From positions 1-56,969 of IMG/VR virus record IMGVR_UViG_2740892231_000011: a DNA stretch of 56,969 nucleotides, one strand, 5' to 3'. The notes below the pieces were generated by a model. That model saw only the letters and a list, made by a program, of their open reading frames with translations, was not told the DNA's origin and ran no database searches. Positions 40 through 41,285 of the stretch are shown here, piece after piece. This stretch comes from a virus (taxonomy: Duplodnaviria; Heunggongvirae; Uroviricota; Caudoviricetes). The translations under genes were made by a program, and so were the position numbers. Position 1 is the stretch's first letter. Every line of letters begins with the position of its first letter.

Positions 40-402
40 GGGGCTGATTCTGGATTCGACGGGATTTGCGAAACCCAAGGTGCATGCCGAGGGGCGGTTG
101 GCCTCGTAAAAAGCCGCAAAAAATAGTCGCAAACGACGAAAACTACGCTTTAGCAGCTTAATAACCTGCTTAGAGCCCTCTCTCCCTAGCCTCCGCTCTT
201 AGGACGGGGATCAAGAGAGGTCAAACCCAAAAGAGATCGCGTGGAAGCCCTGCCTGGGGTTGAAGCGTTAAAACTTAATCAGGCTAGTTTGTTAGTGGCG
301 TGTCCGTCCGCAGCTGGCAAGCGAATGTAAAGACTGACTAAGCATGTAGTACCGAGGATGTAGGAATTTCGGACGCGGGTTCAACTCCCGCCAGCTCCAC
401 CA
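40..402 (+). ncRNA. ssrA: tmRNA (transfer-messenger RNA, SsrA)
   Basis: 363 nt starting GGGGCTGATTCTGGATTCGAC and ending GGTTCAACTCCCGCCAGCTCCACCA; internal tag frame GCAAACGACGAAAACTACGCTTTAGCAGCTTAA (ANDENYALAA*) at about 129..161. Matches E. coli ssrA from memory. Confidence 0.95.
372..402. repeat. att core at ssrA 3' end (left copy of 31-bp direct repeat)
   Basis: GACGCGGGTTCAACTCCCGCCAGCTCCACCA recurs identically at 41255..41285; typical 3'-end tRNA/tmRNA attachment duplication. Confidence 0.75.
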
Positions 403-532
403 ATCATGATTGGACGGTGTAAGGACAACACCAACAAAAACAGGATGTTAGCAGTCTCTGCAGGACACCGACCAGACGGTGAGGGGACAAAAAAGGATAC
501 GCAAAGGAGCCGCGGCTCTTTAGTTACATGAA

Positions 533-556
533 AGCCCGCTAATGCGGGCTTTTTTT
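533..556 (+). terminator. rho-independent terminator-like hairpin downstream of ssrA
   Basis: AGCCCGC-TAAT-GCGGGCT stem-loop followed by TTTTTTT. Confidence 0.5.
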
Positions 557-570
557 ATGGGATAAGACAT

Positions 571-1491
571 ATGAACCAACTGCAAGAAATCATTCAGATA
601 CTAAGTACTGGTGATGAAGGCACAACAAATGCTCTCATAAAAACGAAGATCCTTCTTTTCTCTATCGGGAAAAAGGAGCTTGCTGCATGGGTAAATCATG
701 AGATAAACGGTTATCCTGATTCAGTTTCCCTTCCAGATTATAGAATTGTTGGCACAAGAATTCTTGCAGATCTGAACAACGGCGTTCGCCTATATAGAGC
801 TTTTCCGTTACCGATTGGCTATCTAAGTGAAGATGACTATGAAGATGCTACAACCAGTAATGTGAGGCTTTCAATCAGTCAAATCGAAGAACTAGTAACC
901 AATGCTGGTGATAGCCATGCTCTTCAGCAGCCAATTCCTTTAGATTACGCGTTAGTTAAGTACTGCAAAGGTATCGATAAAGGCTATGAGTTAACACGCT
1001 GTTATAAAGAGATCGCACTACATAACTTTACTTCCATCTTAACTCAGGTCAGGTCACGGCTACTTGATTTTATACTTGAACTTTCTGATCAAGTTTCTGA
1101 AATACCAGATGAGAAAAACATGACAGAAAAACTCAAAAATATCGACACGTCTTCATTATTCCATAACTCAATTTTTGGAGACAATACTGTCATAAACTTC
1201 GGAAATGAAAACTCATTTTCTGTGAATAACCACGTCGTCAAAAACAACACTGAGTCATTAAAAGAGTTTCTCTCAGCTCAGGGGTTCCCTAAATCTGATG
1301 TTAACGATTTAGAAATTGCTATTGGTGAAGATGGCCCGATAGCTAACAAACGTGGTGAATATGGTCAATCTGTTAGTAAATGGTTGGCAAATATTGCGAG
1401 TAAAGCAGCCCATGGTACTTTGGGCATAGGAATAGCTGCTGCAACTCAAGCAGCTACAGCGGCTCTGAAAAAATACTACGGTCTATCATAA
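571..1491 (+). CDS. hypothetical protein (306 aa); candidate defence/abortive-infection cargo with C-terminal small-residue hydrophobic segment
   Basis: Intact ORF in an AT-rich block just inside the prophage end; C-terminus HGTLGIGIAAATQAATAAL resembles a glycine-zipper-type membrane segment; no motif I can assign to a known family. Confidence 0.55.
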   Translation: MNQLQEIIQILSTGDEGTTNALIKTKILLFSIGKKELAAWVNHEINGYPDSVSLPDYRIVGTRILADLNNGVRLYRAFPLPIGYLSEDDYEDATTSNVRLSISQIEELVTNAGDSHALQQPIPLDYALVKYCKGIDKGYELTRCYKEIALHNFTSILTQVRSRLLDFILELSDQVSEIPDEKNMTEKLKNIDTSSLFHNSIFGDNTVINFGNENSFSVNNHVVKNNTESLKEFLSAQGFPKSDVNDLEIAIGEDGPIANKRGEYGQSVSKWLANIASKAAHGTLGIGIAAATQAATAALKKYYGLS

Positions 1492-1540
1492 CCATCATGG
1501 GGTGTCGGGGGTCGGAGGTTCAAATCCTCTCGTGCGACCA
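1492..1540 (+). other. tRNA-Pro 3'-half remnant (non-functional, att-like)
   Basis: CCATCATGGGGTGTCGGGGGTCGGAGGTTCAAATCCTCTCGTGCGACCA matches the anticodon-stem to CCA portion of E. coli tRNA-Pro (proL-type, from memory) with one base missing in the acceptor arm; the 5' half is absent. Confidence 0.7.
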
Positions 1541-1555
1541 AAAATCCCTTAAGAA

Positions 1556-1580
1556 CCAGCCTATTATGGCTGGTTTTTTT
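1556..1580 (+). terminator. terminator-like hairpin
   Basis: CCAGCC-TATTAT-GGCTGG followed by a T-run. Confidence 0.45.
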
Positions 1581-2324
1581 ATGATTGTTTTTTATGCGGA
1601 GAAATACCGGGGAATAATTGGGGTAAAACACCTTTAGGCTATTCACTTAGCCTACCACCATCAAAATCTTTCCGAATGTATCCATCTCTTTTTTCTTATG
1701 CAGCTAAAACGAAGTCTTGATACTGTTTATTTACACAGATAAGAATAATACTGTCTACAAACGCAGTACAAAAGAAGTGTTATGCGTATTGAGATCTCCA
1801 TAACCAAAGACAAAATGACCAAATGCCAAATGGCGCTGTGGACGCGTTAAAGGAAGAGTTAACCCAACACATTGGCAAGCGTTATGACGATGTGGAGATG
1901 ATCGTAAAAGCCACCAGCAACGATAGTTTTTCAGTTAGACATACTGCAGATAAAGATTGAGCTAAAACTTTCGTTCAGGAAACTCTGAATGATACCTGAG
2001 AGTCTACTGAAGAGTTGTTTGTTCACTAGTTAGCACGTAGGAAATCATTCAATACTCGCACTATCGGAAGTTCACCAGCCAGTCGTAGCACGTCCTTGCA
2101 AACGACGTGCCTACAATTTCAATCACCTCTCACCATCAGTTCTATCAATAATAATTAAACAGCGCCTAGACAAAATAAATAACAACAAGTCAACAACCTC
2201 GACAGGATGCCGATGGGATGATGAAGAGATAAGAAAGAATAACCAGTAAAGCCCTAAAACGTCAGCGTTCAGACGCGTTTTTTACTTAACCGGTAACAAA
2301 TACGTTGTATCATAGCAGAATAAA

Positions 2325-4274
2325 ATGATTGTTCTAAATCAGATTAACTCCTCACTTTTGTACAATGTCGCTTACAGGTATACCATGAAATCCGAGACGC
2401 TAACTGTCCAACAACTTTTTCAAGACCGCCGACAATACTGTGTTCCATTCTATCAACGTGCCTATGTATGGACTCAGCAAGACCAATGGTCAGCTCTACT
2501 GGAGGATATCCTAGAGAAAGCACAATCCCGGCTCTCGGGTACAAAACCAACTCCCCATTTCCTTGGTGCGGTTGTACTGGAACCTCAATCAAAAAAAGGA
2601 TTATTAGGTGTAGATTCCATACATATTATTGATGGTCAGCAACGATTGACCACTCTTCAATATGTTCTGGCATCCATCCGATTAGCATTACGTGCTACGG
2701 ATCTTTCCAGCTTAGAGGCTCTCATTTCGCCTTGCCTGAAAAACTCAAACGAAGACACAATGCGAAATAAAGAAGTAGAACGCTTCAAACTGTGGCCAAC
2801 TTTTCGGGATCAAACTCATTTTATTCAAAGTTTTAATGTTGAAAATATTGACGATCTCCGGGACGTATTCTCTGATAGTTTCACGCAGCATGGTACGTTG
2901 CGTAAGCGTTTTAATCACCCGCCATCACTAGAAGCATTATGTTTTTTTACTAAAGCCTTTATAAAATGGATTAAAATAGAAAACCACTCACCACAAGAAA
3001 ATGCTGTAGCTCTAATTGAGGCTGTCTTAACAGATCTGAAACTGGTAAGCATATTTCTCGAAGCTGAAGATGATGCCCAAATAATTTTTGAAACATTAAA
3101 TGGGCGAGGGGCGGAACTTCATGCTACGGATCTTATTCGCAACTATATCTTTATGTGCGCAGAGCATGAAAATATAAATGCTATTGAATTATATGAAAAT
3201 GAGTGGAAGAGCTTTGAAGATAAATACTGGTCGGAAAAACAACGCCGTGGACGTATTAATAAACCACGCATGGAGTGGCTAGTACATGCGACATTGCAAT
3301 CAGAAAGGCAGCGTGAAATTGATCTGTCTCGCCTTTACAATGAGTATCGTGATTATGTAAGTAAGGACTTGTCTTCACAACGAGCAGATCTGCAAGTAAA
3401 GCGCCTCAAACAATATGCATTACAATATAAAGAATTGGTTGATGGTTTTGGCACAACCCCCATCTCACACTTTGGATATCGCATCGCAGACTATGATGTG
3501 ACGACACTTTATCCGCTTGCTTTGTTCATTTCGATAGCTAACATCGCTGATGATGAGAAAGCAGCCATGTATAATGATCTTGTCTCCTACGTAGTACGAA
3601 GAGCCGTATGTGGCCTGACGCCAAAGAATTACAACAATGTATTTATGAATGTATTGCGGCACTTGGCTAAAACGGAAATTTCCAGTGTTGAGTTACGTAA
3701 TATCCTCAATAACTTAAATGGCGAAGCCTCACGTTGGCCTGGTGACTCAGAATTTCTCAACGCTTGCATCAATGCTCCACTTTATCCTGGCAGGCTCGAC
3801 GCACCGAAAATGCGCTCAATGTTAACGGAACTTGAAAGAGAACTTTGTCGCCAAGTGAAGACCGAAAAGCCTGATGTTCCAAATCTTTCTAATCTCGATA
3901 TCGATCATCTTATGCCCCAAAGTTGGTATTCCTGTTGGCCTCTCGAAAATGGTCGTATGGTGACAAATTCAGATGCTACGGTATTGAACCAAATTGTTCT
4001 GTCTGGAACCGATCTTACCCCTGAACAGCTACTGGTAAGGAAACGGCAACAAGCGATAGCTACTTTGGGAAATCTAACTTTGCTTAACCTTAGCGTAAAC
4101 CGTTCTGTTCAGAATGCTGTATTTCTGAAAAAACGTGATGCTCTCATCGTCCACACCAATCTACGACTGAACATTCCACTTATAGTTAAGGATAAATGGG
4201 ATGAGGATGAAATCCTGGAGCGGGGTAAAAAGTTGGGGGAAATTGCATTGAAAGTATGGCCAAAACACGATTAA
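2325..4274 (+). CDS. GmrSD-like type IV (modification-dependent) restriction endonuclease, DUF262 + DUF1524 architecture
   Basis: N-terminal YQRAYVW and DGQQR motifs (DUF262/ParB-like NTPase); C-terminal DIDHLMPQSW His-Me finger motif (DUF1524). True start may be the internal Met at about 2385 (MKSETLTV). Confidence 0.8.
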   Translation: MIVLNQINSSLLYNVAYRYTMKSETLTVQQLFQDRRQYCVPFYQRAYVWTQQDQWSALLEDILEKAQSRLSGTKPTPHFLGAVVLEPQSKKGLLGVDSIHIIDGQQRLTTLQYVLASIRLALRATDLSSLEALISPCLKNSNEDTMRNKEVERFKLWPTFRDQTHFIQSFNVENIDDLRDVFSDSFTQHGTLRKRFNHPPSLEALCFFTKAFIKWIKIENHSPQENAVALIEAVLTDLKLVSIFLEAEDDAQIIFETLNGRGAELHATDLIRNYIFMCAEHENINAIELYENEWKSFEDKYWSEKQRRGRINKPRMEWLVHATLQSERQREIDLSRLYNEYRDYVSKDLSSQRADLQVKRLKQYALQYKELVDGFGTTPISHFGYRIADYDVTTLYPLALFISIANIADDEKAAMYNDLVSYVVRRAVCGLTPKNYNNVFMNVLRHLAKTEISSVELRNILNNLNGEASRWPGDSEFLNACINAPLYPGRLDAPKMRSMLTELERELCRQVKTEKPDVPNLSNLDIDHLMPQSWYSCWPLENGRMVTNSDATVLNQIVLSGTDLTPEQLLVRKRQQAIATLGNLTLLNLSVNRSVQNAVFLKKRDALIVHTNLRLNIPLIVKDKWDEDEILERGKKLGEIALKVWPKHD

Positions 4275-4295
4275 TGCAATTAATAAAATGATTAT

Positions 4296-4321
4296 AGCGG
4301 CCTTACCTTAGTAAGGCCGCT
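4296..4321. terminator. 11-bp stem hairpin after the GmrSD-like gene (putative terminator)
   Basis: AGCGGCCTTAC-CTTA-GTAAGGCCGCT perfect inverted repeat; no clean T-run on the + strand. Confidence 0.35.
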
Positions 4322-4524
4322 ACTCACTATTAAATACTTTAATTTGCATCAAGAACAGCAATGTCAGCCCTAGGTCTCGGACTTTGTACCGCTTATCTTG
4401 TTTTCAAAAATCAGCTCGCATCCTGCACAGTTCAGCGCATTACGTTGTAGATCTGTGTTCTGGTCATTTGTTGATACGCGTACATAGCCAATAAGCATGG
4501 TAGATCCCCCTGACAAAAGCAGGA

Positions 4525-4938
4525 ATGATGCCATTTGCTCGTTATTTCTGCATTTTCATAAACGTTGGTTTGGGAGAAGCGGCAAAACGGGATGTGGGGA
4601 CAGGGGAAAATCAGATACCGGACATGGCCTCTTTTGCCAGTGGTGATGGATGGATGAAATTACCCAACGGGAAAATCCTGCAATATGGTCGTGGTGCGGT
4701 TACGCCGACATTATCGACGCAAACAATGAGAATTACATTCAGCATCCCTTTCCCCAAAAAAGCGGACTGCGCCATGCTTACTCATTCTGGTGATGGCGGT
4801 GCGCCTTTAGGCGCTGGGCGAGGGTTCGTGATGACTGCAGAAGGCCCAACGTTAACCGGCTTTAATTCTGCTTACAGAACGTCATCAACCAGCGACACGG
4901 TATCGATGAATTACAGTTGGTGGGCTGTTGGTGAGTAA
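4525..4938 (+). CDS. orphan tail-fibre variable C-terminal segment (S'v-like)
   Basis: Tail-fibre tip-like sequence, convergent with the main fibre gene; only 7 in-frame codons upstream before a stop, so no constant part is attached. Confidence 0.45.
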   Translation: MMPFARYFCIFINVGLGEAAKRDVGTGENQIPDMASFASGDGWMKLPNGKILQYGRGAVTPTLSTQTMRITFSIPFPKKADCAMLTHSGDGGAPLGAGRGFVMTAEGPTLTGFNSAYRTSSTSDTVSMNYSWWAVGE

Positions 4939-4949
4939 TTTTATTCAGG

Positions 4950-5402
4950 GTGATTTATATGAACGAATATGTTTATAGCGCAAGGCATAATGCTTTTTTC
5001 CCTGTGGATATGATTGATAAATATAAATCAGAGGGATGGGATTTATCAGATGCTAAGGAAGTGAATCAAAATATTATCAGTGAGTTTATGGCTGAACCGC
5101 CACAAGGAAAGATCCGTATTGCCGGAAATGATGGGCTGCCTGCGTGGGCAGATATTCCTCCACCCACGCATGAAGAGCTTATTGAAATTACTGAATCAGA
5201 AAGACAGCTATTAATTAACCAGGCCAACGAATACATGAACAGTAAACAATGGCCCGGTAAAGCCGCTATTGGTCGTCTGAAAGGTGACGAACTGGCGCAA
5301 TATAATTTGTGGCTGGATTATCTGGACGCACTGGAGCTGGTCGATACTTCCGGTGCGCCAGATATTGAATGGCCTACGCCTCCGACAGTTCAGGCCAGAT
5401 GA
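4950..5402 (+). CDS. tail fibre assembly protein (Tfa, alternative copy)
   Basis: 150 aa with Tfa-like C-terminus (LWLDYLDALELVDTSGAPDIEWPTPP); paired with the orphan fibre segment. Confidence 0.7.
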   Translation: MIYMNEYVYSARHNAFFPVDMIDKYKSEGWDLSDAKEVNQNIISEFMAEPPQGKIRIAGNDGLPAWADIPPPTHEELIEITESERQLLINQANEYMNSKQWPGKAAIGRLKGDELAQYNLWLDYLDALELVDTSGAPDIEWPTPPTVQAR

Positions 5403-5976
5403 CATCCGGCGCGGTGCTGGTATCTGTTGCCGTCACCGCGTCAATGTAATCCAGCACAGCGTTAAGGCGGGTTGTTTCTGCCTGCGTCAGTTTACGTCCG
5501 GCCTGCAATTTCAGCTGAATCAGACTGATGGAGGCCATTGCAGTATCAATCAGCGACTGGCGCTGTGCTTCTGCTGCATCTACTGCTGCGCCGTGCTGTG
5601 CCTCGGTATCCGTCACCCATTTCTCACCATCCCATTTATCGTATGGCGTTAACGGGGCGATAGTGGTTGTATTATCAGGGTAATCACCCGGAGCTGTGAT
5701 TTCTTTTGATTCCCCTGTTTCGGTGCTAAAAACGATTTCACCGCGATGGTCTGGCATATATTCCCATGATTTTAAATCTGCTGAACGGCAGATAGTATAA
5801 CCAGCCTTATATGTACCAGGAGCATCTAAACAGGAATACGCCGGAATACCGACACCCACAACAAGATATTCGGTTGATGTGGAAAGATATTCCTTCGTCT
5901 CAGCATCAAAATTATAAACGGTAATGTTTCCTGCCTTTGTAGTAATGAGTTCGCTATTTAATACGGCTTTATTCAT
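5374..5976 (-). CDS. tail fibre assembly protein (Tfa)
   Basis: 200 aa; C-terminus LNAVLDYIDAVTATDTSTAPDVIWPE is Tfa-like; immediately downstream of the tail fibre gene. Confidence 0.7.
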   Translation of the reverse strand: MNKAVLNSELITTKAGNITVYNFDAETKEYLSTSTEYLVVGVGIPAYSCLDAPGTYKAGYTICRSADLKSWEYMPDHRGEIVFSTETGESKEITAPGDYPDNTTTIAPLTPYDKWDGEKWVTDTEAQHGAAVDAAEAQRQSLIDTAMASISLIQLKLQAGRKLTQAETTRLNAVLDYIDAVTATDTSTAPDVIWPELSEA

Positions 5977-6701
5977 CAGGCTGCCCTCACGATATAGTTA
6001 AATGCGACGTTGCGCGGCCGGGTTTCAGAACCACCAACCGATACCGTAGAAATTGAATTTGCCGTAATAAGTTCCCCGAAAGCATCAGCCGTAACTACGA
6101 ACCGACCTCCCGTTGGATCAAAACCTGTTAGCGCATAGTACTTGTCAAACCAGTGCCCATGAGAAGCAAATAAATGGTCTTGAGATGTCAACAAACCACG
6201 AGAGGAATCCACCCCGCGCCCATCATCCCATCCACGAATAAATTCACCGCGTAAATCAGGCAATTTATTTGTCGGGTAAGCCTTTGCCAGTTCCGGGTAT
6301 TCTTCAGCAGAAAAAGCCGCACCATTGCATTTCAACCAGCCTGTTGGCGGAGTGGCTGAAGGCCACGGAACAGGCACCCCAACAGGTAATGCTGAGCCTT
6401 CTCCCAAACCAAGGTTTTCGAGAGCCGTTTTCACCGTGCCATCCGATTTGATATCGCCAAACGGATTCTTGCGGCTTAACAGCAGCGCACGAAGCGCGGT
6501 AAGCAGCTGATCATGCCGCCCCTTCTCCAGGCTGGCACCGGATGCCTCCACAACACTGCAAAGTTCCTCCTGCAACATGTCAAAGTAGTCATCATCCAGA
6601 TCGGTGGCAGGTGTGCCGGTCTGGGGGTTACCACGGGTAAAACCGTTCTTACCCGCGCCGAACTTATCCTTCTGCGCGGTTTTCGTATCTATACGATGCA
6701 T
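5976..6701 (-). CDS. tail fibre protein (Mu S-like)
   Basis: 241 aa; C-terminus ...[17 protein letters not shown] typical of Mu/e14-type fibre tips; follows the baseplate genes. Confidence 0.75.
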
Positions 6702-6704
6702 GGA

Positions 6705-7289
6705 TTACTCCGGATATTTAAAAATTACGTAGGTATGCGACGGGCAGAGTTTGTTAAGCACACACTCGACAACGGTGTCGCCCCAGATACGCAGTGCGGA
6801 ATCACAGGGATCGCCACATGTCATCCAGGTGGTGTTGGTGTCGGCTGGCATGTTGACCTGCCAGTAATACCGCCATTCCGGCGCATTCACCGCGTCAGTA
6901 CAGGCCGATGAGCAGGTGAACGTGCTTTTGTCGTATCGCGTGATGGTGGCGTCTGGTCTGCCCAGGGCAGCAAGCTGTGCAAGGTAAAAATCCTCATTGA
7001 TGCCGCCCGCCAGGTTAACCTTCGCATCCAGTCGTTGCTGACGCTGGCGAAGGCTCTGTGTCCCTGCGGGAATACATTCATCCGGCAGGCCGCACAGACG
7101 CTCCCAGCGATTTATCAGTTCGGTGGTGGTGCGCGGATCCAGCTCCCGCATCAGGGCATCCGCACGCTGATGAACGCGGGTTAATGACTGTGCCGCACCG
7201 GCAATCGCCGGATCGCTGGCTGACCACGCCGGACCGGGCGGCAGCAGTGCCGACAACAGACGGATGTAATCATCGTTTGTCACGTCCAT
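6705..7289 (-). CDS. tail/baseplate protein, Mu gp48 (DUF2313)-like
   Basis: 194 aa; position between baseplate J-like gene and tail fibre as in Mu-like tails. Confidence 0.6.
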
Positions 7290-8338
7290 GAAATCGTCCC
7301 CAGAACCGCCAGTTCATTTTTTGCAATGGAGATATTGTCCGCCGGAGCAAGCAACTGATGGCTGTATTCCCCGTTCGCACCGGAAATCGCTTCACTGATA
7401 CGCGACACCTTCAGCTCTCCCTGCGGATAACCATCACGCAGCAGGAATGAACGCAACTCTGCGGTAATGGCAGCCCGTATTTCCGGTGTGTCCGGCGTCA
7501 CGCGGATATGAAAATCCACCGTATGCGCCACCGGCCTGAACACATACAAATCAGAGCCTGCCACCGGGGCCAGTGGCTCAATGTGTTGTCTTGCCGCCGT
7601 TTCCGTTGATTCTTCCGGAATGGGATTAATCAGGTCACTGCTGGCAATCATCACACCGACAGTTCCCGTTCCCATCCAGTGACGGTATGTCCATGCGCGG
7701 GTAATGCCGGGCACTTCTTTAGCCCAGACGACATAGTCCCCGTCAGCCCCGCCCTGCGGCGTCCAGTAATACCGCTCAATGACGCGGGCGCGCCACGTTT
7801 CCAGATCTTCAGTATCGAATCCGCCAGTCAGGGTATCTGCCACACCGGAAGACGGCAGACCATTCACCGGCGTGACCAGGATTAATGCCGTACCGTCGTC
7901 AGCGTTACCGACCGCACCTGCAGTTGAGCAGGCGATCGGCACGCGCAGGACACCACCGGAGCTGGTTGCATCAGAAGTTGCCGTGTACTGAACCAGGTCA
8001 TCGCGCTGAATAACACTCCCGGCGGTCACCTTCAGGCCATCGCTGACACCTTCCCAGCGCATATACCCGTTGGCAGACGTGGCCCCCTTGCGCGGACACC
8101 GTTTCATCGCAGCATGTCGCGCCAGCCAGGACTCATCGCACAGGTCAGGCAGCATGTTCATTGCCAGATAATCGATGTAACCGTAAACCGTATGCAGCGC
8201 CGCCGCATACACCTTTGCCCGCACGTCTTCATCCATGCGCCGGAGCGTGTCGCTGACGTCCAGCCTGGCGAATAAATCGTTACGGAGCATACTGATATTT
8301 TCTGCCAGCGTCGGGCGTTGAAATTCACTGTCCGCCAT
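7280..8338 (-). CDS. baseplate protein, Baseplate_J / Mu gp47-like
   Basis: 352 aa; gene order and sequence character consistent with baseplate J family. Confidence 0.75.
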
Positions 8339-8753
8339 GCGTTATCGCACTCCACAGATCATCAAAAGAAATCATTACCGGTCCGTCACGACGCCAGAGG
8401 GTGATACTGTTACCCAGCTCATTAATCCCGGTGCGGCGGATATCCAGATCAATACGGGACACCACGCCGTCATCAATCATCCATTGCAGGCATTCGCGGA
8501 TATACCCCCTTACCGTCTGCACCAGCTGATTGGTCAGTTTGCTGCGCTGAAGCAGCCACAGTCGGGAGCCGTAACGGTCATTCTGTACCGCAGGCCAGGT
8601 ATCCCCCCACCATCCCATCGGGACGTCGGCATTGTCATTAGGTTCAACCCGCCGCCAGGTGAACAGGGAAATCACCACGGCACGGGTCAGCGGATCCAGC
8701 GGTGCGCTGGCGCAGGTGCGTTTACCGTTCACCGTCAGCCACAGTTCCATCAT
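8325..8753 (-). CDS. baseplate protein, Mu gp46-like
   Basis: 142 aa, translationally coupled within the baseplate block. Confidence 0.6.
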   Translation of the reverse strand: MMELWLTVNGKRTCASAPLDPLTRAVVISLFTWRRVEPNDNADVPMGWWGDTWPAVQNDRYGSRLWLLQRSKLTNQLVQTVRGYIRECLQWMIDDGVVSRIDLDIRRTGINELGNSITLWRRDGPVMISFDDLWSAITHGGQ

Positions 8754-11744: not shown

Positions 11745-11762
11745 TAACAGATTAATTTTTCA

Positions 11763-17792: not shown

Positions 17793-17794
17793 AC

Positions 17795-25726: not shown

Positions 25727-25729
25727 AAA

Positions 25730-27486: not shown

Positions 27487-27499
27487 GCTCGTTCTCCAC

Positions 27500-28495: not shown

Positions 28496-28496
28496 C

Positions 28497-29294: not shown

Positions 29295-29313
29295 ACTTCG
29301 TTTCTCCTCTTAA

Positions 29314-32108: not shown

Positions 32109-32117
32109 GACCGACCT

Positions 32118-32456
32118 CTATTTCCCTGAATTTACGACGAAACTGTTCGAGCGGGCTGAAGCACTCATGCTCATAGCCTTCGCGGAGGTAGATAACCCGT
32201 TGTGTTTCCGGCTCCCAACGAATGACTCTGACGGGCACTCCGTAGTGATCTTTGAACCAGCGGTTAACTTGTCGCAAAGGACTGTCTCCTTCTGCCGGTT
32301 GAAATCACCCACAGCCCACTCTGCAAAGCTGTGGGTTACAATTTCCCTGTCACCTGGTACATTTACTGCATAGCAATACTCCACCTTCGCTTTTCCACCC
32401 GGTACAGGAAGCGCAATCAGTTGCGAGCGACGGTAGTGTGTTGTTAAACTGTTCAT
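32118..32456 (-). CDS. hypothetical protein
   Basis: 112 aa ORF whose start overlaps the upstream stop (coupling); no recognisable motif. Confidence 0.35.
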
Positions 32457-33016
32457 GCGTTAGTTTCTCCACAGTCACGACACGCCACGGCGCCCGGAGC
32501 TGCACACTCGCGGGCGTCACTACTTTCTGAAACGCAAAAGATTTTGTAGACCAGTGCTGCATGCTCCTGCAGCTTCGAAATTGAGAGGTACAGCTCATCG
32601 TTAATTGCTGTCTTCTCATGTGGTTCCACTACACCGTCTTCAATTGCTGAACGAATCTGTTTTGAATAACTGCCGATCTGTTCAATGACTTCCAGCAGGC
32701 GTTGGTTGATATCGGCGTTGTCCACATCCTCGACGTCAGGAAGAGACACAAAGACGCCATTTGCAGACTGCGCCACAGCGTCAACAATGAAGTGAGTGCC
32801 ACCAGCACGCTGTAAAACCATTGCCCATCCCAGCGGGAAAATCTGATCGCCATCTGCACGAAGGCGGTTGAATAAAGCGTTTTCTGTTACATCGAGCCAG
32901 TCAGCCGCTTCAGCGTAACCACCCGGCAACGCCGCGATAGTTTTTCTGACAGCTTTCACGTACCACTCAGGCTGTTTTTCTATTTTCCAGTGATGCTTAC
33001 CCACGATTAGCCTCAT
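32453..33016 (-). CDS. early regulatory protein (CII / YdaT-like position)
   Basis: 187 aa immediately downstream of the cro-like gene; family assignment uncertain. Confidence 0.45.
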
Positions 33017-33047
33017 CGTTCTGTGGTTAAAAATTGAAAGTGTTCTG

Positions 33048-33248
33048 CTAATCTTTCGGATAGATATCCGGTCTTAAGTCAGATTTCGTAATTGCACCTG
33101 ACGTGCATTGCTCAAGTTTTTTAGCCAGCACAAAACTGGCTTTTTTATAGCCATTGAAAACCAGCCGTAAGTAGCCAGGTGTTGAGCCAACTTTTCCGGC
33201 CAACTCGCCCTGCTGTTCTTTGGTTAAAGAGTCCCAATACGCTTTCAT
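33048..33248 (-). CDS. Cro-like HTH regulator
   Basis: 66 aa from internal Met (MKAYWDSLTKEQQGELAGKVGSTPGYLRL...), divergent from the repressor; the track ORF 33048..33551 is an upstream read-through. Confidence 0.6.
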   Translation of the reverse strand: MKAYWDSLTKEQQGELAGKVGSTPGYLRLVFNGYKKASFVLAKKLEQCTSGAITKSDLRPDIYPKD

Positions 33249-33251
33249 ACA

Positions 33252-33323
33252 ATATGTACCTCCAGTGTACATATTACATGATTGAAATGAACCTTCAAGA
33301 CACTTGTACCTTAACGGTACAAG
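33252..33323. promoter_or_regulatory. immunity-region operators between divergent cI-like and cro-like genes
   Basis: Two dyads: ATATGTAC-ctccagt-GTACATAT (about 33252..33274) and CTTGTACC-ttaac-GGTACAAG (about 33303..33323), sharing a GTAC core. Confidence 0.55.
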
Positions 33324-33338
33324 GGTTTTAATTTCGTT

Positions 33339-34013
33339 ATGAAAACAATCCATGACATCCGGCGGTCTAACGCCAGAAAACTGAGAGATGGTGTTGGCGG
33401 GAATTCTTCCTTTGCCACTATGATTGATCGCGAGCCAACCCAGACCAGCAGGTTTATGGGAGATGGTGCTACTAAAAATATCGGTGACAGCATGGCACGA
33501 CACATCGAAAAATGTTTCGACCTGCCTGTTGGATGGCTCGATCAAGAACACCAGACAACGAACATCACAAAAAAACCTGATGTTTCAATCACTAATAAAC
33601 AAATCACATTAGTCCCTGTCATATCATGGGTACAGGCCGGAGCATGGAAAGAAGTTGGATATTCTGAGGTTGATTTGAGCACAGCAGAAACGTATCCCTG
33701 CCCTGTACCCTGTGGGGAAATGACTTATATCTTGCGGGTGATAGGTGATTCAATGATTGATGAGTACCGCCCAGGAGACATGATTTTTGTCGATCCTGAA
33801 GTACCTGCCTGCCACGGTGACGACGTTATTGCATTGATGCACGATACAGGTGAAACCACCTTCAAAAGGTTGATAGAAGATGGGACACAGCGTTATCTCA
33901 AAGCGTTAAACCCAAACTGGCCTGAGCCTTACATTAAGATCAACGGTAATTGCTCTATAATTGGTACTGTGATTTTCTCAGGAAAACCAAGAAGATACAA
34001 AATCAAAGCCTAA
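33339..34013 (+). CDS. CI-like repressor with S24 (LexA-type) autopeptidase domain
   Basis: N-terminal HTH, C-terminal LRVIGDSM...GDMIFVDPE...FKRL consistent with a Ser-Lys peptidase fold. Confidence 0.8.
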   Translation: MKTIHDIRRSNARKLRDGVGGNSSFATMIDREPTQTSRFMGDGATKNIGDSMARHIEKCFDLPVGWLDQEHQTTNITKKPDVSITNKQITLVPVISWVQAGAWKEVGYSEVDLSTAETYPCPVPCGEMTYILRVIGDSMIDEYRPGDMIFVDPEVPACHGDDVIALMHDTGETTFKRLIEDGTQRYLKALNPNWPEPYIKINGNCSIIGTVIFSGKPRRYKIKA

Positions 34014-34164
34014 TCAATGTTTATGAACCTGCTTCGGCAGGTTTTTTTATACTTGACAATGTACCTTTGAGATACATAATGTACCCAAAAGAAACAACAA
34101 ACAGGCAGGACGCCCACGAAGTAGCCGCCTGGGGCATATGAAGTCCAGGATGATTCGTTGAGTC

Positions 34165-34482
34165 ATGTTGTGCCACTATGCACTCATGTTAAAGCAGGTG
34201 TATGAAATGAAAGTCCAGATTTTAAACAATAACTGTGAAGTCGTTTGGTCATACGACATAGCCGCCCCTGTAGATCAGAGCGGCGATAGCTGGACCAATG
34301 GGAAACATCAGATTATGGCTGGAGTTGTGTTCTCTTTACGCCGTGCTTTGGAACAGGCTGAAGTATTTCCATCAGACCCTGAATGGAAATGGCCTTTTTC
34401 TATTTGTCCAAATTCGGAGAGCACATTTCAGAAAATTGGTCAGAAAGTCGCACTCGAAGAGCATCAGCCAACTGTTTCCTGA
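34165..34482 (+). CDS. hypothetical protein
   Basis: 105 aa ORF downstream of the repressor; overlaps a convergent ORF, so only one may be real. Confidence 0.3.
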   Translation: MLCHYALMLKQVYEMKVQILNNNCEVVWSYDIAAPVDQSGDSWTNGKHQIMAGVVFSLRRALEQAEVFPSDPEWKWPFSICPNSESTFQKIGQKVALEEHQPTVS

Positions 34483-34645
34483 TTATTTCAGGTAACTCGT
34501 CGGCATCGCAGAAACAACAACGCTCGATCATGTTGAAAGCCGATTCGTAGAACTGTTTCTGCTGAGTGTCGCTGAGACAGGAAAAGAACGACGTTACGAT
34601 GATTTTATTAATTGCATTATCAAGTTCTTTTTCATCAAAAGTCAT
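34400..34645 (-). CDS. hypothetical protein
   Basis: 81 aa AT-rich ORF, convergent with 34165..34482. Confidence 0.3.
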   Translation of the reverse strand: MTFDEKELDNAINKIIVTSFFSCLSDTQQKQFYESAFNMIERCCFCDADELPEIIRKQLADALRVRLSDQFSEMCSPNLDK

Positions 34646-35082
34646 TTGATTTTCCTTTTATGTATACGGGCTTAAAAGGATACCACCGAGCCTGAAGTGG
34701 TGAAAAGACAGGCACATAACAGCTAAGTATTTTCAACCAAAGAGAATCCTTGGCGTTGTGGTGAATGCGGCTCAGCGCACGCGGGTTAAGGTTGAGGCTG
34801 ACAGTCGACCTTCTGTGGATACCCACCCGTCTGGTGTGCAACCTTCGCCAGGCACCGGGAGGCACCCGGCACCACAACTTTATGCTGTGTGTAGTCCTGG
34901 CGGTACCAGTTTGTACCCTTGCTTCCGGCTGGTACCGTCCTTTTTACAAAACCGAGAAGAGCATCACCGGACGACGGGCTCATAACCCAATCCATCCGGG
35001 CGGCTGCCACCGCAGGTGTTCTTCTCTGTTTTGTGGAGAAACCAACTGGCCTTGCAGGGTCGATATGATGAGGAGCAGCAAA

Positions 35083-35445
35083 ATGGCTAGCGAACGCAGT
35101 ACTGATGTGCAGGCATTTATCGGGGAGCTGGACGGCGGCGTATTTGAAACCAAAATCGGCGCAGTTCTCAGTGAAGTCGCTTCCGGTGTGATGAACACGA
35201 AAACCAAAGGTAAGGTCTCACTCAACCTGGAAATCGAACCATTTGATGAGAACCGTGTGAAAATCAAACACAAACTCTCATATGTTCGCCCGACTAACCG
35301 CGGGAAAATTTCCGAAGAAGACACCACCGAAACGCCGATGTATGTCAATCGCGGTGGTCGCCTGACTATTCTGCAGGAAGACCAGGGACAATTACTGACT
35401 CTTGCCGGTGAACCTGACGGAAAACTCCGCGCAGCAGGTCATTAA
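35083..35445 (+). CDS. YfdP-like early protein (120 aa)
   Basis: AGGAG RBS 7 nt upstream of ATG at 35083; the longer track ORF from 34765 is an unlikely extension; gene order matches the CPS-53/SfV-like yfdPQRS block. Confidence 0.5.
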   Translation: MASERSTDVQAFIGELDGGVFETKIGAVLSEVASGVMNTKTKGKVSLNLEIEPFDENRVKIKHKLSYVRPTNRGKISEEDTTETPMYVNRGGRLTILQEDQGQLLTLAGEPDGKLRAAGH

Positions 35446-35510
35446 TATCGTTCTTAATTAACTGATTATTTATCTCATCACTGAATATCTTTATATAGTG
35501 AGGACTTATT

Positions 35511-36335
35511 ATGTCTCAGAACTTAGACGCAACCGCAATTAATCAAATCCATGCCCTTATTTCTGCTCAGGGTGTTAATGAAATTATCAGTAAGATTGGT
35601 GCCGATGTTGTGGCATTGCCTGAGAATTTCCGCATTCATGATCTGGAAAAATTTAATTTAAATCGCTTCCGTTTCCGTGGTGCGCTTTCCACTGCCAGCA
35701 TCGATGACTTTACCCATTATTCCAAAGATCTTGCAGATGAAGGCACCCGCTGCTTTATCGATGCTGATAATATGCGTGCTGTCAGTGTGCTTAATCTGGG
35801 TACTATTGATGAACCAGGTCACGCAGATAACACCGCCACTCTCAAACTGAAAAAGACAGCACCGTTCTCTGCACTGTTGTCTGTTAACGGCGAGCGTAAC
35901 TCCCAGAAGCCACTGGCAGAATGGATTGAAGACTGGGCCGACTACCTTGTGGGCTTTGATGCTAATGGTGACACCATTCAGGCAACCAAAGCGGCTGCGG
36001 CGATCCGTAAAATCACGATTGAAGCAAACCAGACCGCTGATTTTGAAGATAATGACTTCAGCGGCAAACGCTCCCTGATGGAGTCTGTCGAAGCGAAGAC
36101 CAAAGACATTATGCCAGTGGCATTTGAATTTAAATGCGTTCCGTTTGAAGGCCTGAAAGAACGTCCGTTTAAATTACGCCTCAGCATTATCACTGGCGAT
36201 CGTCCGGTACTGGTTCTGCGCATTATTCAGCTGGAAGCGGTGCAGGAGGAAATGGCTAACGAATTTCGTGATCTGCTTGTTGAGAAATTCAAAGACAGCA
36301 AAGTAGAAACCTTTATTGGTACTTTCACCGCCTGA
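35511..36335 (+). CDS. YfdQ-like (DUF2303) protein
   Basis: 274 aa, same length and position as yfdQ in SfV-like early-left operons (from memory). Confidence 0.55.
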
Positions 36336-36462
36336 TTTCATTACTGCAAATGCCCCTGCGGGGGCATTTATGGAAACATAATTTACTCAATAATCGCCGG
36401 ATGGTGAGGGCTTCCTTTTACCCGAATTCAGCGCGGTGCAGCGCATATACGTGGAGAACAAA

Positions 36463-36999
36463 ATGTCATTTATTAAAACTTTTTCCGGGAAGCATTTTTA
36501 TTATGACAAGATAAATAAAGACGACATCGTGATTAACGATATCGCGGTTTCCCTTTCAAATATCTGTCGCTTTGCAGGACATCTATCACACTTCTACAGT
36601 GTCGCCCAGCATGCAGTGCTTTGCAGCCAACTGGTGCCGCAGGAATTTGCTTTTGAAGCGTTAATGCATGATGCAACAGAAGCGTATTGCCAGGACATCC
36701 CCGCACCACTGAAACGACTTCTTCCTGACTATAAACGGATGGAAGAAAAAATAGACGCCGTAATCCGTGAGAAATACGGGTTACCTCCTGTTATGAGCAC
36801 GCCAGTGAAATATGCCGATCTCATTATGCTGGCAACCGAACGCCGCGATCTCGGACTTGATGATGGCTCTTTCTGGCCTGTATTGGAAGGTATCCCGGCA
36901 ACAGAGATGTTCAAAGTTATTCCACTGTCGCCAGGTCATGCCTACGGGATGTTTATGGAACGTTTTAACGAGTTATCGGAGTTACGCAAATGCGCATGA
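36463..36999 (+). CDS. HD-domain phosphohydrolase (YfdR-like)
   Basis: HD motifs (HLSHFYSVAQHAV ... LMHDATEAY); start at MSFIKTF with GGAGA RBS; 178 aa. Confidence 0.65.
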   Translation: MSFIKTFSGKHFYYDKINKDDIVINDIAVSLSNICRFAGHLSHFYSVAQHAVLCSQLVPQEFAFEALMHDATEAYCQDIPAPLKRLLPDYKRMEEKIDAVIREKYGLPPVMSTPVKYADLIMLATERRDLGLDDGSFWPVLEGIPATEMFKVIPLSPGHAYGMFMERFNELSELRKCA

Positions 37000-37352
37000 A
37001 TGTTTTCGAAATGGAAGGGTTTCTTCGTGGGAGATGTGTACCGCGAGATCTGAAAGTGAATGAAACAGATGCTGAATACCTGGTACGTAAATTCGATGCG
37101 CTTGAAGCTAAATGTGCAGCACTGGAAAACAAAGTAATACCAGTGTCAGCTGAACTGCCGCCAGCAAATGAAAGTGTTCTGTTATTTGATGCTAATGGAG
37201 AAGGCTGGCTGATTGGCTGGCGTTCTCTCTGGTACACATGGGGGCAAAAAGAAACCGGAGAATGGCAGTGGACATTTCAGGTCGGGGACCTTGAAAACGT
37301 CAATATCACTCACTGGGCAGTAATGCCGAAAGCACCGGAGACTAAGAAATGA
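36990..37352 (+). CDS. YfdS-like (DUF551) protein
   Basis: 120 aa, coupled to the preceding gene. Confidence 0.5.
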   Translation: MRMNVFEMEGFLRGRCVPRDLKVNETDAEYLVRKFDALEAKCAALENKVIPVSAELPPANESVLLFDANGEGWLIGWRSLWYTWGQKETGEWQWTFQVGDLENVNITHWAVMPKAPETKK

Positions 37353-37564
37353 GCGTGATAAAAACTCATACAGGAATTGTTATCACCCGAGACGGTGAAA
37401 AGCGGATGAAATTACATTCTACTGAAACGTCCTGGGTTGCCGGACGTTGTGAATCCTACGACAAAAAGACTGGTTACCGTTGGGGCGCGACAAACATGCG
37501 CCGCCGTCTGCTCCTGGACAGCATCAGGCCAATAAAACACGTAGCAACCAGAGAACAAAATTAA
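37349..37564 (+). CDS. hypothetical protein
   Basis: 71 aa ORF coupled within the early-left operon. Confidence 0.4.
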   Translation: MSVIKTHTGIVITRDGEKRMKLHSTETSWVAGRCESYDKKTGYRWGATNMRRRLLLDSIRPIKHVATREQN

Positions 37565-37611
37565 TTATCAGGACTGGAATTTGATATTACTGCCCGTGTG
37601 CAGCGGGCTAA

Positions 37612-37830
37612 GTGGAGAAACATATGCTGAACCTCGATTGTGTTCCTATCTCAACTTATTGCAAAGAAACTGGCGAAACTCCTGAAGCAATAAACAAACG
37701 TGTACAGCGCGGTGTTTGGCGTGAAGGTGTTCAGGTTTTAAAGGTTGAAGGCGTTAAGGAGAGGTGGATTGATCTTAGTGAGGTTGCAAAATGGGCCAGA
37801 CAAAACTGCTCAAACTACCGCGCGGCGTAA
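37612..37830 (+). CDS. excisionase-like protein
   Basis: Small basic protein directly upstream of and overlapping the integrase start. Confidence 0.45.
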   Translation: MEKHMLNLDCVPISTYCKETGETPEAINKRVQRGVWREGVQVLKVEGVKERWIDLSEVAKWARQNCSNYRAA

Positions 37831-38987
37831 CAATCAGGAAACACCGCCAGGGCGAAACGATCAATATAACTTTCACCTACAAAGGAGTTAAATGTCGTGA
37901 GCCTCTTTCCAATCTGGAAGTAACACCAAAGAACATTAAATACGCCGAGCGCACACTCGGCGAAATTCATAATAAGATCGAAAGGGGAACATTCATTTAT
38001 GCGGAATATTTTCCCCGTTCTGCTCGTTTGAAAATTTTTGGTAATGCTGCTGCAGGCAAAACGGTAAAAATGTACCTGGACGAATATCTTGAAATCTGCG
38101 AAACGAGAAAACTCTCACCCTCAACGATTGGTGGTTATAAAAAATGCCGTAGTGCGTTAGCCTCACTCCACATTTGCCCTGCAAGTGAATTAACACCAGC
38201 AATCCTGAAAGCGTGGATTCAAAGTCAGAAAACGACCTTAAAAACAATTCGCAACCAGTTATCTTTCCTGCGGTCAGCACTTGATGAAGCCGTAACCGAT
38301 GGGGTACTTCAAATTAACCCCGTATCGTTGGTAACTGCTTCGCGCTACCAAAGTGATAAGTCAGAAGCAGAAAGTTGCTACGTGGTTGATCCGCTATCAC
38401 CAACAGAAGTTGATGCATTACTAGCAGCAGCCGGAAACAAACAATGGGAGAATCTGTTCCGGTTCGCTATACATACAGGCCTGCGTAGTTCTGAATTATG
38501 TGCCCTTAGATGGCGTGATATCGACTTTGTTGGAAAAACTGCCCATGTCCAGAACGCAAGTGTTGTCGGTGTTATCAAAGGAACAAAGACAAAAGCCGGT
38601 ACTCGTAAAGTTGAACTGACAGAAGAGGCAATGTTGGCGCTGATAAACCAGAAGCCATTTACATTCATGAAGGATGCTACTGTCTTTGAAGATCCAAAGA
38701 CAAACAAACCGTGGGCCAGCGCCGATGCGATAAGGAAAAAAGCGTGGATACCAACCTTGCGTAAAGCTGGTATCCGGTACCGTAACCCATATCAGACCAG
38801 GCATACATTCGCCACCAGCCATATCAGCCGTGGTGCGAACCTGTTCTGGCTTGCAGCTCAAATGGGGCATAAAGGGCCGGAAATGCTTTTCAGGCATTAT
38901 GGTTCGTATCTCGTAGACTATGATGGCAAGACAGCTTGTAAGGACCAAGTATCAAAAAATCCGGAGAACATGAAAATTGAGAAGTAA
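37791..38987 (+). CDS. int: tyrosine integrase (lambda-type with arm-binding N-terminus)
   Basis: 398 aa; C-terminal catalytic region with R...HTFATSHI...LGH...Y-type motifs; positioned near the att repeat at 41255. Confidence 0.85.
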   Translation: MGQTKLLKLPRGVTIRKHRQGETINITFTYKGVKCREPLSNLEVTPKNIKYAERTLGEIHNKIERGTFIYAEYFPRSARLKIFGNAAAGKTVKMYLDEYLEICETRKLSPSTIGGYKKCRSALASLHICPASELTPAILKAWIQSQKTTLKTIRNQLSFLRSALDEAVTDGVLQINPVSLVTASRYQSDKSEAESCYVVDPLSPTEVDALLAAAGNKQWENLFRFAIHTGLRSSELCALRWRDIDFVGKTAHVQNASVVGVIKGTKTKAGTRKVELTEEAMLALINQKPFTFMKDATVFEDPKTNKPWASADAIRKKAWIPTLRKAGIRYRNPYQTRHTFATSHISRGANLFWLAAQMGHKGPEMLFRHYGSYLVDYDGKTACKDQVSKNPENMKIEK

Positions 38988-39177
38988 AACGCCCGATAGC
39001 ACTAGCCCCCCTTCGAAAAACAGTAAAGCTTACAAGAATGTTAGCAGGATGATGAGGATAGTGTACAATGGTTTTAGTGTGCATTAAATGCAAAGATTTG
39101 ACGTTTTTTGTCAAATTTGTGCTATAAAATCACTTTTAGTGGTTTTTAAGCTATGGGAAGTTAAAAGGGTATAAATT

Positions 39178-40443
39178 ATGTTGATTGAGTTTACAGTACA
39201 AAACTATAAATCTATTTCAGAGAAACAAACACTGAGTTTAGTTGCATCAAAACTTAACGATTTGCCTAATAATCTGTTCAGTATTGATGAACCTAAATCT
39301 CTTGAATTGCTTAAAAGTGCTGTGATTTATGGCCCTAATGCTGCCGGAAAATCAAACATTATTAACGCTATTACAACTATGGCTGAACTTATTGTCCGGT
39401 CTGCTACAGGTTATAAAAGTGGTGATAAACTTGATATCACGCCTTTTAGACTAGACTCAAAGAAGATTAATCAACCATCTGAATTTGAAATTAACTTTAT
39501 TTCCGAAGGCATCAGATACCAGTATGGTTTTTCTGCAACAGAAGATTTTATTCACGACGAATGGTTATTTGCATTCCCCAAAGGCAGACCACAAAAATGG
39601 TTTTTACGTCTATGGGATGAAGAAAAACAAACCCATGAATGGGAGTTGGGGCCATCGTTGACAGGAGAAAAACAAACATGGTTGAAATCAACTAGGCCTA
39701 ATGCGCTCTTTCTTTCTACAGCGGTACAATTAAACAGTGTACAACTAAAACCTGTATACGATTGGTTTTATTACAAAGTTAAATTTACTGAATTAACAGG
39801 TTGGGATAGTGATTACAGTGCAAAGCAATGCTTAAATGATAAGAAAGATGAGATTCTCAATTTTTTAAAAGCTGCCGATGTAGGTATTGATGACATTCAT
39901 GTAACAAAGGAAAAATTCAATCCCAATGCTCTTCCTGATGATATGCCTGCAGCCATCAAGGAACTAGTGATTAAGAATATGCAAGGCAAGGAAGAATATG
40001 TCATTAAAACACTTCATAATAATGAGGCTGGAGAGCCAATTCCATTCGATTTAAAAGATGAATCGCATGGAACTAGAAAAATCTTTAGTTTCGCGGAACC
40101 CTTATCACATTCACTCGAGACAGGAAACATCCTGTTTATTGATGAATTAAATGATAACTTACACCCCAAATTAGTTGAGTTTATTGTAGGTTTGTTTCAC
40201 GATAAAAATATCAATAAGAATGGTGCCCAGTTAATCTTTACAACTCATGAGACGTCTATTTTAAATCAAGATGTTTTCAGACGAGATCAGATTTGGTTTG
40301 TAGAAAAAGACAATTCAAAGCAAACAAATCTTTTCCCACTTACGGATTTTAGTCCAAGAAAAGGAAGGGAGAATTTAGAAGCTTCTTATCTTGACGGTAG
40401 ATATGGGGCTTTACCACTCATTGGGAAATGGGAGAGATATTAA
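39178..40443 (+). CDS. AAA/ABC-type ATPase, AbiLi / RloA-like
   Basis: Walker A GPNAAGKSN near the N-terminus; Walker B-like ILFIDELNDNLHP; AT-rich; start of the next gene overlaps its stop. Confidence 0.7.
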   Translation: MLIEFTVQNYKSISEKQTLSLVASKLNDLPNNLFSIDEPKSLELLKSAVIYGPNAAGKSNIINAITTMAELIVRSATGYKSGDKLDITPFRLDSKKINQPSEFEINFISEGIRYQYGFSATEDFIHDEWLFAFPKGRPQKWFLRLWDEEKQTHEWELGPSLTGEKQTWLKSTRPNALFLSTAVQLNSVQLKPVYDWFYYKVKFTELTGWDSDYSAKQCLNDKKDEILNFLKAADVGIDDIHVTKEKFNPNALPDDMPAAIKELVIKNMQGKEEYVIKTLHNNEAGEPIPFDLKDESHGTRKIFSFAEPLSHSLETGNILFIDELNDNLHPKLVEFIVGLFHDKNINKNGAQLIFTTHETSILNQDVFRRDQIWFVEKDNSKQTNLFPLTDFSPRKGRENLEASYLDGRYGALPLIGKWERY

Positions 40444-41129
40444 TGGGAAGCGAAGATCTGTTCAAAAAAAGAAAGGCTCGGCGTAATAATGAATTCAAAC
40501 GAGTTAGTAAAGCACGAGCTCAAATGAAGAAAATTCTCATCGTCTGTGAGGGAGAGAAGACTGAGCCCGCATATTTTACAGATTTTATAAAACATTGCCG
40601 TATAAGCACGGCAAGCATAGTTGAGATTTCTGGAGAGTGCGGCTCAAGCCCTATGAATGTGGTATCTTGGGCAAAAGAAAAATATAATACGGAAAAGAAA
40701 AGGAGCGACCCTTATGATAAGGTTTATTGTGTCTTTGATAGAGACGCTCACCCTAACTATGATGAAGCTCTTAGCAGGATTAATTCCTTAAATCCAAAAG
40801 GGATTTTTGTTGCTATAACTTCCATACCATGTTTCGAGTACTGGCTGATACTACATTTTGGATACACCCGAAAATCATTTTCACCTCAGAAAGGCAAAAG
40901 TGAAGGCGCACAAATGCTAGCTGAGTTAAAAAAATACATGCCAGATTATGAGAAAAAGGCATCAGGTGTATTTAATAAATTGCAAGATCGGCTCGATACG
41001 GCATTAATCAATGCTAAAAGAGTCGAAGATGCCGCCAAAAAAGACGGGTCGATAAATCCTTCAACTAAAGTTGGCGCTTTGATTACAGATCTAATTAACA
41101 TTCGTGATGACTTTGAAAATGAGAAGTAA
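40428..41129 (+). CDS. RloB-like protein (AbiLii-like partner)
   Basis: KILIVCEGEKTEPAYF motif characteristic of RloB-like proteins as I recall them; operonic with the ATPase. Confidence 0.6.
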   Translation: MGEILMGSEDLFKKRKARRNNEFKRVSKARAQMKKILIVCEGEKTEPAYFTDFIKHCRISTASIVEISGECGSSPMNVVSWAKEKYNTEKKRSDPYDKVYCVFDRDAHPNYDEALSRINSLNPKGIFVAITSIPCFEYWLILHFGYTRKSFSPQKGKSEGAQMLAELKKYMPDYEKKASGVFNKLQDRLDTALINAKRVEDAAKKDGSINPSTKVGALITDLINIRDDFENEK

Positions 41130-41254
41130 AAATAACATGTCATGATGTAGCGACGGCAGCATGTTTAAGTTCAAATGGCAAAGTGTACGCGAAGTATACG
41201 CGAATCAAAAACAATAGAAAAAACGTATATTTTACAAAAGATTATATAAATTTT

Positions 41255-41285
41255 GACGCGGGTTCAACTCCCGCCAGCTCCACCA
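41255..41285. repeat. att core (right copy): attR of prophage 1 / attL of the IntA-type element
   Basis: 31-bp exact copy of the ssrA 3' end GACGCGGGTTCAACTCCCGCCAGCTCCACCA. Confidence 0.8.

Follow-up and report, generated by a model that had tools for sequence, protein, structure and literature searches.

The stretch of DNA analysed here, hereafter the window, is the whole of the IMG/VR virus record IMGVR_UViG_2740892231_000011 (56,969 nt). It is Escherichia coli DNA: strain K-12 matches positions 1-403 at 100% identity, and complete E. coli genomes contain near-identical counterparts of every segment. Near its left end the window carries ssrA, the gene of the transfer-messenger RNA (tmRNA), followed head to tail by a prophage (prophage A) and by what is left of an integrative island (island B). 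It is composed of two contigs placed end to end over 10 N, at the boundary of a copy of IS3. The GC content is low (35-44%) in three blocks, at 1-5 kb, 39-41 kb and 43-47 kb, and reaches 51-59% in the core between them. We are highly confident in the following account: island B is an old remnant, prophage A came later to the same ssrA, and the right-hand contig originates from the glyU locus.

The ssrA gene and its displaced 3' end

The features on which the boundaries of prophage A depend are the following.

40..402, + strand: ssrA (tmRNA gene), intact, with the tag ANDENYALAA (ARAGORN; Rfam RF00023, 295.8 bits)
372..402, + strand: 31-bp identity block that forms attL of prophage A, made of the T-arm, the 3' acceptor strand and the CCA of tmRNA (exact repeat)
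403..556, + strand: phage-borne attL arm, with a hairpin and U-run (about 527-556) in place of the ssrA terminator (identity to phage LLS; folding)
41255..41285, + strand: attR of prophage A, i.e. the displaced ssrA 3' fragment, which is also the ssrA-derived part of the attL of island B (exact repeat)

The 31-mer GACGCGGGTTCAACTCCCGCCAGCTCCACCA corresponds to the final 31 bp of ssrA. Two exact copies of it exist in the window, at 372-402 and 41255-41285, both on the + strand, which confirms the exact repeat described in an initial annotation of this DNA and shows that it is unique in the window. That annotation also stated that no third copy occurs before the window ends. This holds: none was found in the window at up to three mismatches, the 11- and 12-mers of the repeat have no other occurrence there, 10-mers match only at 14958 and 21068, inside the prophage, and a variant of the CP4-57 style (1-nt deletion) has no credible copy. 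An Rfam scan of the window returned the tmRNA and no other RNA family.

A repeat of this kind could also be a segmental duplication or a chance match, unrelated to site-specific integration. The chance of this is next to nil. No match to the 31-mer appeared in 100 shuffles, and the flanks of the two copies are unrelated on both sides. When mismatches are allowed the similarity reaches 38 nt (365-402 versus 41248-41285, 92%) and then stops. A longer duplication around the repeat, the objection that the initial annotation had raised against its own proposal, was rejected for this reason. In addition, the interval between the repeats is exactly one phage genome with the integrase and excisionase genes at one end.

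The sequences upstream of the two copies differ in origin: native ssrA on the left, a degenerate phage tmRNA pseudogene on the right. The crossover must therefore lie within the 31-bp block. In strain M10 the attR copy has a mismatch at its fourth base, so that only the right-hand 27 nt can contain the crossover there. In strain S56 the block equivalent to 41255-41285 is the 3' end of an intact ssrA and adjoins island B.

Downstream of the left copy, positions 403-555 are 88-90% identical to the stretch that follows the tmRNA pseudogene in the free phage LLS. The alternative that 403-555 is native chromosome, suggested by a similar stretch distal to CP4-57 in K-12, was rejected because LLS carries it next to its pseudogene and S56 is without it. 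This arm contains the hairpin at about 527-556 (-18.2 kcal/mol, z -4.4), which a simple terminator scan overlooked and which folding revealed clearly. Island B has its own hairpin at 41320-41350 (-15 kcal/mol, z -4.5). Each element therefore supplies a GC-rich hairpin and a U-run right after the ssrA 3' end, and ssrA retains a terminator whichever of the two adjoins it.

Prophage A and the island B remnant

The two elements and their main genes are listed below, up to the end of the left-hand contig.

403..41254, no strand: prophage A, temperate myovirus of LLS/SfV type, 40,852 bp between the repeats (in-silico excision, module identity)
33339..34013, + strand: LexA-family (CI-like) prophage repressor (PGAP annotation of homologues, as ymfK / LexA family, in CEC12044, M10 and UTAK-14)
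37612..37830, + strand: candidate excisionase gene of prophage A (LLS gene 33, itself a putative excisionase, is 88% identical and has the same position, overlapping the integrase start)
37791..38987, + strand: integrase of prophage A, heterobivalent tyrosine recombinase (Pfam Arm-DNA-bind_2 and Phage_integrase; 86% identical to LLS Int)
41286..46795, no strand: what remains of island B (5.5 kb), including its own terminator-like hairpin for ssrA at 41320-41350; S56 and M10 have this remnant at 99.9% identity
41409..42680, + strand: island B integrase, P4/IntA type, PGAP start equivalent to 41451 (Pfam Arm-DNA-bind_3, Phage_int_M and Phage_integrase; 48% identical to the K-12 IntA of CP4-57)
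43356..44972, - strand: Response_reg_2 protein, island B cargo (Pfam PF19192), shortened by a 1-nt deletion near 43379
44956..46674, - strand: HEF_HK/HATPase_c protein, island B cargo (Pfam PF19191, PF02518)
46796..46863, + strand: first 68 nt of an IS3 copy, at the contig end (M10 has the identical IS3 end at this junction)

The repeats of prophage A are spaced by 40,883 bp. Removing the element in silico (1-402 joined to 41286-46863, 5,980 nt) yields a sequence that matches, end to end and at 99.916%, the locus of S56 running from smpB, ssrA and the integrase to IS3. This in-silico excision was the decisive test. Prophage A is therefore a precisely bounded insertion at a site that is unoccupied in other strains. 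It has the features of a prophage integrated into a tRNA or tmRNA gene (tDNA): the interval 403-41254 carries its own tyrosine integrase and an excisionase homologue, the target is intact at the near end and a 3' fragment in the same orientation is displaced at the far end, and an unoccupied site equal to the element-removed sequence exists in S56.

The virion module of A (6214-24028; head, tail-sheath and baseplate genes) is about 97.5% identical to those of vB_EcoM-689R6, SfII, SfI, SfIV and SfV. The annotation of a close relative in UTAK-14 includes terminase, portal, lysis, Q-region, replication, Cro/CI-type and int genes. Judged by the annotation of this relative, prophage A is intact-looking and its gene set appears complete. 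A Pfam search of the putative excisionase (37612-37830) gave no match.

Concerning the two integrases, the initial annotation placed that of the prophage just left of the right-hand repeat. It ends in fact 2.27 kb to the left, with AbiLi and AbiLii in between. The IntA-type integrase announced just right of the repeat is indeed there (41409-42680), with the P4 architecture and the identity to K-12 IntA given above. The two proteins are essentially unrelated to each other, being just 25% identical over 128 aa.

Island B adjoins ssrA alone in S56 and others. Within 41286-46795 four open reading frames (ORFs) remain: the integrase, a small ORF and the histidine kinase (HK)-like/receiver-like pair. 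Neither an AlpA-type excision regulator nor P4-like primase or replication genes are found among these four ORFs; the DUF927 primase encoded from 47870 is located past the N gap, in an island of the glyU locus, and does not belong to B. The HK-like/receiver-like pair is the sole cargo left in the remnant. These HEF_HK and Response_reg_2 proteins correspond to the two-component-like, paraMORC-related pair of Bellieny-Rabelo et al. (PMC8011034), and PADLOC gave no match for either of them. Relative to S56 the receiver-like gene is frameshifted and encodes 538 aa instead of 582; the same allele is present in at least 24 draft contigs.

The initial annotation left the right boundary of the second element open. 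This can no longer be kept, and the element does not extend to the window end. Island B can be followed only to the IS3 end at 46796, after which comes the 10-N gap, and its distal end is deleted in the comparators. In the complete genomes with the identical remnant (S56, without A; M10, with a variant of A) IS3 is followed by a 5'-truncated ygaQ (alpha-amylase-like) and then by glaH. The IS3 of M10 is flanked by ...CTGCG and AGATAAC..., without target-site duplication, and its right flank lies 1.1 kb inside the ygaQ of K-12. The lack of a target-site duplication together with a flank internal to ygaQ is the signature of an IS-associated deletion, here of the distal island along with attR and the beginning of ygaQ. 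No third ssrA fragment was found in 41286-46863 or elsewhere in the window, and no further one downstream in M10. From these comparisons we infer that the third att copy, that of island B, was deleted in this lineage and does not lie beyond the window. Having lost attR, island B could no longer excise by itself, although it keeps its integrase.

Six independent draft contigs that carry the receiver-gene allele of the window all break at this junction: five stop 20-122 nt into IS3 and the sixth stops 2 nt short of it.

In CEC12044 (23040-23200 of its locus sequence) and UTAK-14 the junction IS3 has been lost, along with 2 nt to one side of it and about 19 nt to the other, and a different IS3-family insertion lies within the receiver-like gene. 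This loss and this new insertion indicate that the remnant is still eroding.

The contig gap and the glyU locus

The right-hand part of the window contains the following features.

46864-46873, no strand: assembly/scaffold gap (10 N); adjacency of the two sides is not established
46874..56166, + strand: distal part of a P4-like satellite-type glyU island (DUF927 primase at 47870-50008, SSB, ProQ/FinO, PerC, Q-like antiterminator), matching JNEC-KY174 and 2015C-3121
56167..56184, + strand: glyU island attR, matching exactly the last 18 nt of tRNA-Gly
56376..56952, + strand: 5' part of a gene for a GH15 glycoside hydrolase, neighbouring chromosomal sequence on the glyU side (annotation of comparator loci; the alignment runs to 56953)
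56953..56969, + strand: the same IS3 end again, 17 nt, cutting the GH15 gene at the window end (sequence)

Both contigs terminate in the same IS3 end (46796-46863 and 56953-56969). Because of the gap at 46.86 kb, features called across this position are unsafe. Positions 46874-56184 are 100% identical to the island of JNEC-KY174 and 99.8% identical to that of 2015C-3121. Both of these islands occupy tRNA-Gly, with actS on one side and, on the other, a GH15 gene adjoining a degenerate type III secretion cluster. The window has the same arrangement on its right side: a displaced tRNA-Gly 3' fragment, then the chromosomal flank and the GH15 gene. Judged by these matches, 46874-56969 derives from the glyU locus: it forms a second contig, which scaffolding or concatenation placed behind the first, and should be left out of the ssrA array. 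In JNEC-KY174 two islands stand in tandem at this tRNA-Gly site.

The join could nevertheless be real if recombination between two IS3 copies had inverted the interval of roughly 245 kb between ssrA and glyU, fusing the B remnant to the distal glyU island. The IS3 ends on the first contig and at 56953 on the second do place IS3 copies at both loci, the second contig begins abruptly in unique island sequence, as if a repeat lay to its left, and the ssrA and glyU loci face each other in inverted orientation on the K-12 map. We nonetheless regard the inversion as very unlikely. Among 5,426 complete E. coli genomes there is none with this arrangement, nor any with 41000-56969 as one contiguous sequence. 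Complete genomes with the remnant run from IS3 to the truncated ygaQ and glaH. The left end of the second contig has no IS3 nucleotides, a third IS3 would be needed exactly at 46874, and a spacer of 10 N is no evidence of linkage. The same very unlikely event would have produced a hybrid island with an attL of ssrA type and an attR of tRNA-Gly type, which no integrase could excise. We thus keep the assignment of the right-hand contig to glyU.

Order of arrival, related elements and cargo

The arrangement at ssrA most probably arose as follows. An island with a P4/IntA-type integrase (B) would first have inserted into the ssrA 3' end. It would then have decayed, an IS3-associated deletion removing its distal part, attR and the 5' half of ygaQ and leaving the 5.5-kb remnant. 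A phage of LLS/SfV type (A), whose attP mimics the ssrA 3' end over 31-38 nt, would later have integrated into the regenerated ssrA, its tyrosine integrase recombining attP with attB within the 31-bp identity block. The 3'-end copy and the terminator hairpin of the phage now complete ssrA, the former 3' end having moved 40.9 kb downstream, where it still adjoins B. Int and Xis together would reverse the integration of A. Both directions of this reaction, by Int with or without Xis, are expected, since heterobivalent tyrosine integrases are established to act in this way. As the two att copies are identical, the excision of A would restore an intact ssrA.

We infer that B came first and decayed and that A came later, since the same remnant and IS3 junction are seen without A (S56 and further strains) and beside variants of A with differing cargo (e.g. 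M10). The exact junction of AbiL, attR and the integrase of B is present in 7 complete genomes, and the same passage from prophage to remnant is seen in complete E. coli genomes such as UTAK-14 and CEC12044. In many other genomes B stands alone or next to another variant of A.

The reverse order, with the same elements and boundaries, would have A arriving first and B entering the displaced 31-bp fragment at the attR of A. That fragment holds the whole T-arm and the acceptor 3' strand, and the repeat of CP4-57 in K-12 measures only about 14-22 nt, so a complete attB for a P4-type integrase could be contained in it. Moreover, in K-12 the IntA element is proximal to ssrA and an arm of LLS type is distal. 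The same decayed remnant with its IS3 junction nevertheless lies directly on an intact ssrA in strains without A, and it also lies beside variants of A with other cargo. An old B followed by repeated later arrivals of A is the simplest explanation of both facts, and we consider the reverse order unlikely.

Several points weigh against the account that we favour, i.e. an old B remnant, a later A and a contig from glyU. The completeness of prophage A is deduced from the annotation of relatives, and its excision and inducibility are predicted. Convincing arm-type integrase sites were not found in A: the motif (G/T)(A/G)TACGC(G/A)AA, present three times in the reconstructed attP, was rejected as a candidate, not being conserved in the arms of LLS or M10. 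A pattern of presence and absence underlies the proposed order of arrival, and the loss of A by excision would give the same S56-like state. The sequence that follows IS3 in this genome is deduced from other strains. Finally, the 10-N join may stem from paired-read scaffolding, from reference-guided ordering or from plain concatenation.

Several integrase families target ssrA in enterobacteria, where islands stack head to tail and share tDNA fragments. Tandem genomic islands at tRNA and tmRNA genes, including ssrA, are said to have been described by Williams in 2003. The phenomenon is thus already known: ssrA is a hotspot, tandem arrays are routine and the present finding is ordinary. What the analysis adds is mainly curation, namely the exact boundaries of A, the recognition of B as a dead remnant without a right att, and the reassignment of about 10 kb to another locus.

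Among the arrays recorded in Islander, 125 comprise two or more members, and ssrA is the most enriched target (PMC4383910). In this database each member of an array possesses an integrase of its own and a displaced tDNA fragment of its own. The two unrelated integrases of the window agree with the first rule. As for the second, island B has lost its fragment and falls outside it. The tandem occupancy of ssrA by two integrative elements, as initially annotated, is consequently right in part: two unrelated integrase-bearing elements do stand head to tail and share the middle att, but one of them, B, is only a truncated remnant. "Prophage plus adjacent island remnant" is the accurate label.

The element type of A also exists as a free phage, LLS (PQ299149). 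The LLS order, xis, int, cargo, a 39-nt tmRNA pseudogene with attP, cargo, a DinI-like gene, invertase and tail fibre, is a circular permutation of that of the window. The two share an Int and an Xis that are 86% and 88% identical, and the arm after the ssrA mimic. They differ by the cargo on both sides of attP (AbiL, AbiTii and GmrSD in A), the comparison with LLS covering the region around attP. The attP of LLS lies in the tmRNA pseudogene, and its authors deduced an integration into the ssrA 3' end without loss of function and noted the convergence with CP4-57 (Genome Res 2025, PMC12315714).

SfV, SfII, SfI, SfIV and vB_EcoM-689R6 are related to A through the module 6214-24028, at about 97% identity. 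In the Shigella phages SfV, SfII, SfI and SfIV the integrase differs, the site used is the thrW tRNA, and O-antigen gtr genes stand in the place of the defence genes of A.

Island B is best compared with CP4-57 of K-12 (intA, alpA, psaA). In both cases a P4-type integrase lies immediately 3' of ssrA, and the island provides the ssrA 3' end and a terminator. The integrases are nevertheless only 48% identical, and the B remnant has neither alpA nor replication genes nor attR. The displaced copy of K-12, psaA, lacks one U, whereas the displaced copy of the window is exact. Excision of CP4-57 in K-12 inactivates tmRNA and trans-translation (PMC10107115, Table 1). The exact copy predicts, in contrast, that loss of prophage A should leave tmRNA intact.

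In K-12 about 150 nt between the attR of CP4-57 (psaA) and ypjA are 90% identical to the LLS-type arm (22573-22737 of the K-12 locus sequence versus 388-554 of the window). Either K-12 once had these two types of element in the opposite order, pinH nearby being an invertase remnant, or this is an ancestral ssrA flank that was captured in an LLS-type attP.

Prophage A carries the following cargo genes near its ends.

571..1491, + strand: AbiTii-domain protein (Pfam PF18864, 3e-33; PADLOC AbiTii, 4e-33; GC 39-46%)
2325..4274, + strand: GmrSD-type (DUF262/DUF1524) type IV restriction enzyme (Pfam GmrSD_N and GmrSD_C; PADLOC mREase_IV, 1410 bits)
39178..40443, + strand: AbiLi (AAA_21 ATPase), between int and attR (Pfam; PADLOC AbiLi, 4e-101)
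40428..41129, + strand: AbiLii (RloB), between int and attR (Pfam; PADLOC AbiLii, 3e-29)

Low-GC defence genes thus occupy both slots that flank attP, AbiTii and GmrSD in one and AbiLi/AbiLii (GC 35-37%) in the other. The int-proximal slot holds an ATPase and a Dam methylase in M10 and is empty in one draft contig. This two-sided defence cargo illustrates the slots flanking attP as exchangeable cargo positions.

The 3' ends of the prophage int gene (38955-38989) and of the AbiLii/RloB gene (41097-41131) have in common the sequence GAAAAT(T)GAGAAGTAAAA. It may be the scar of the insertion or exchange of a defence cassette directly 3' of int.

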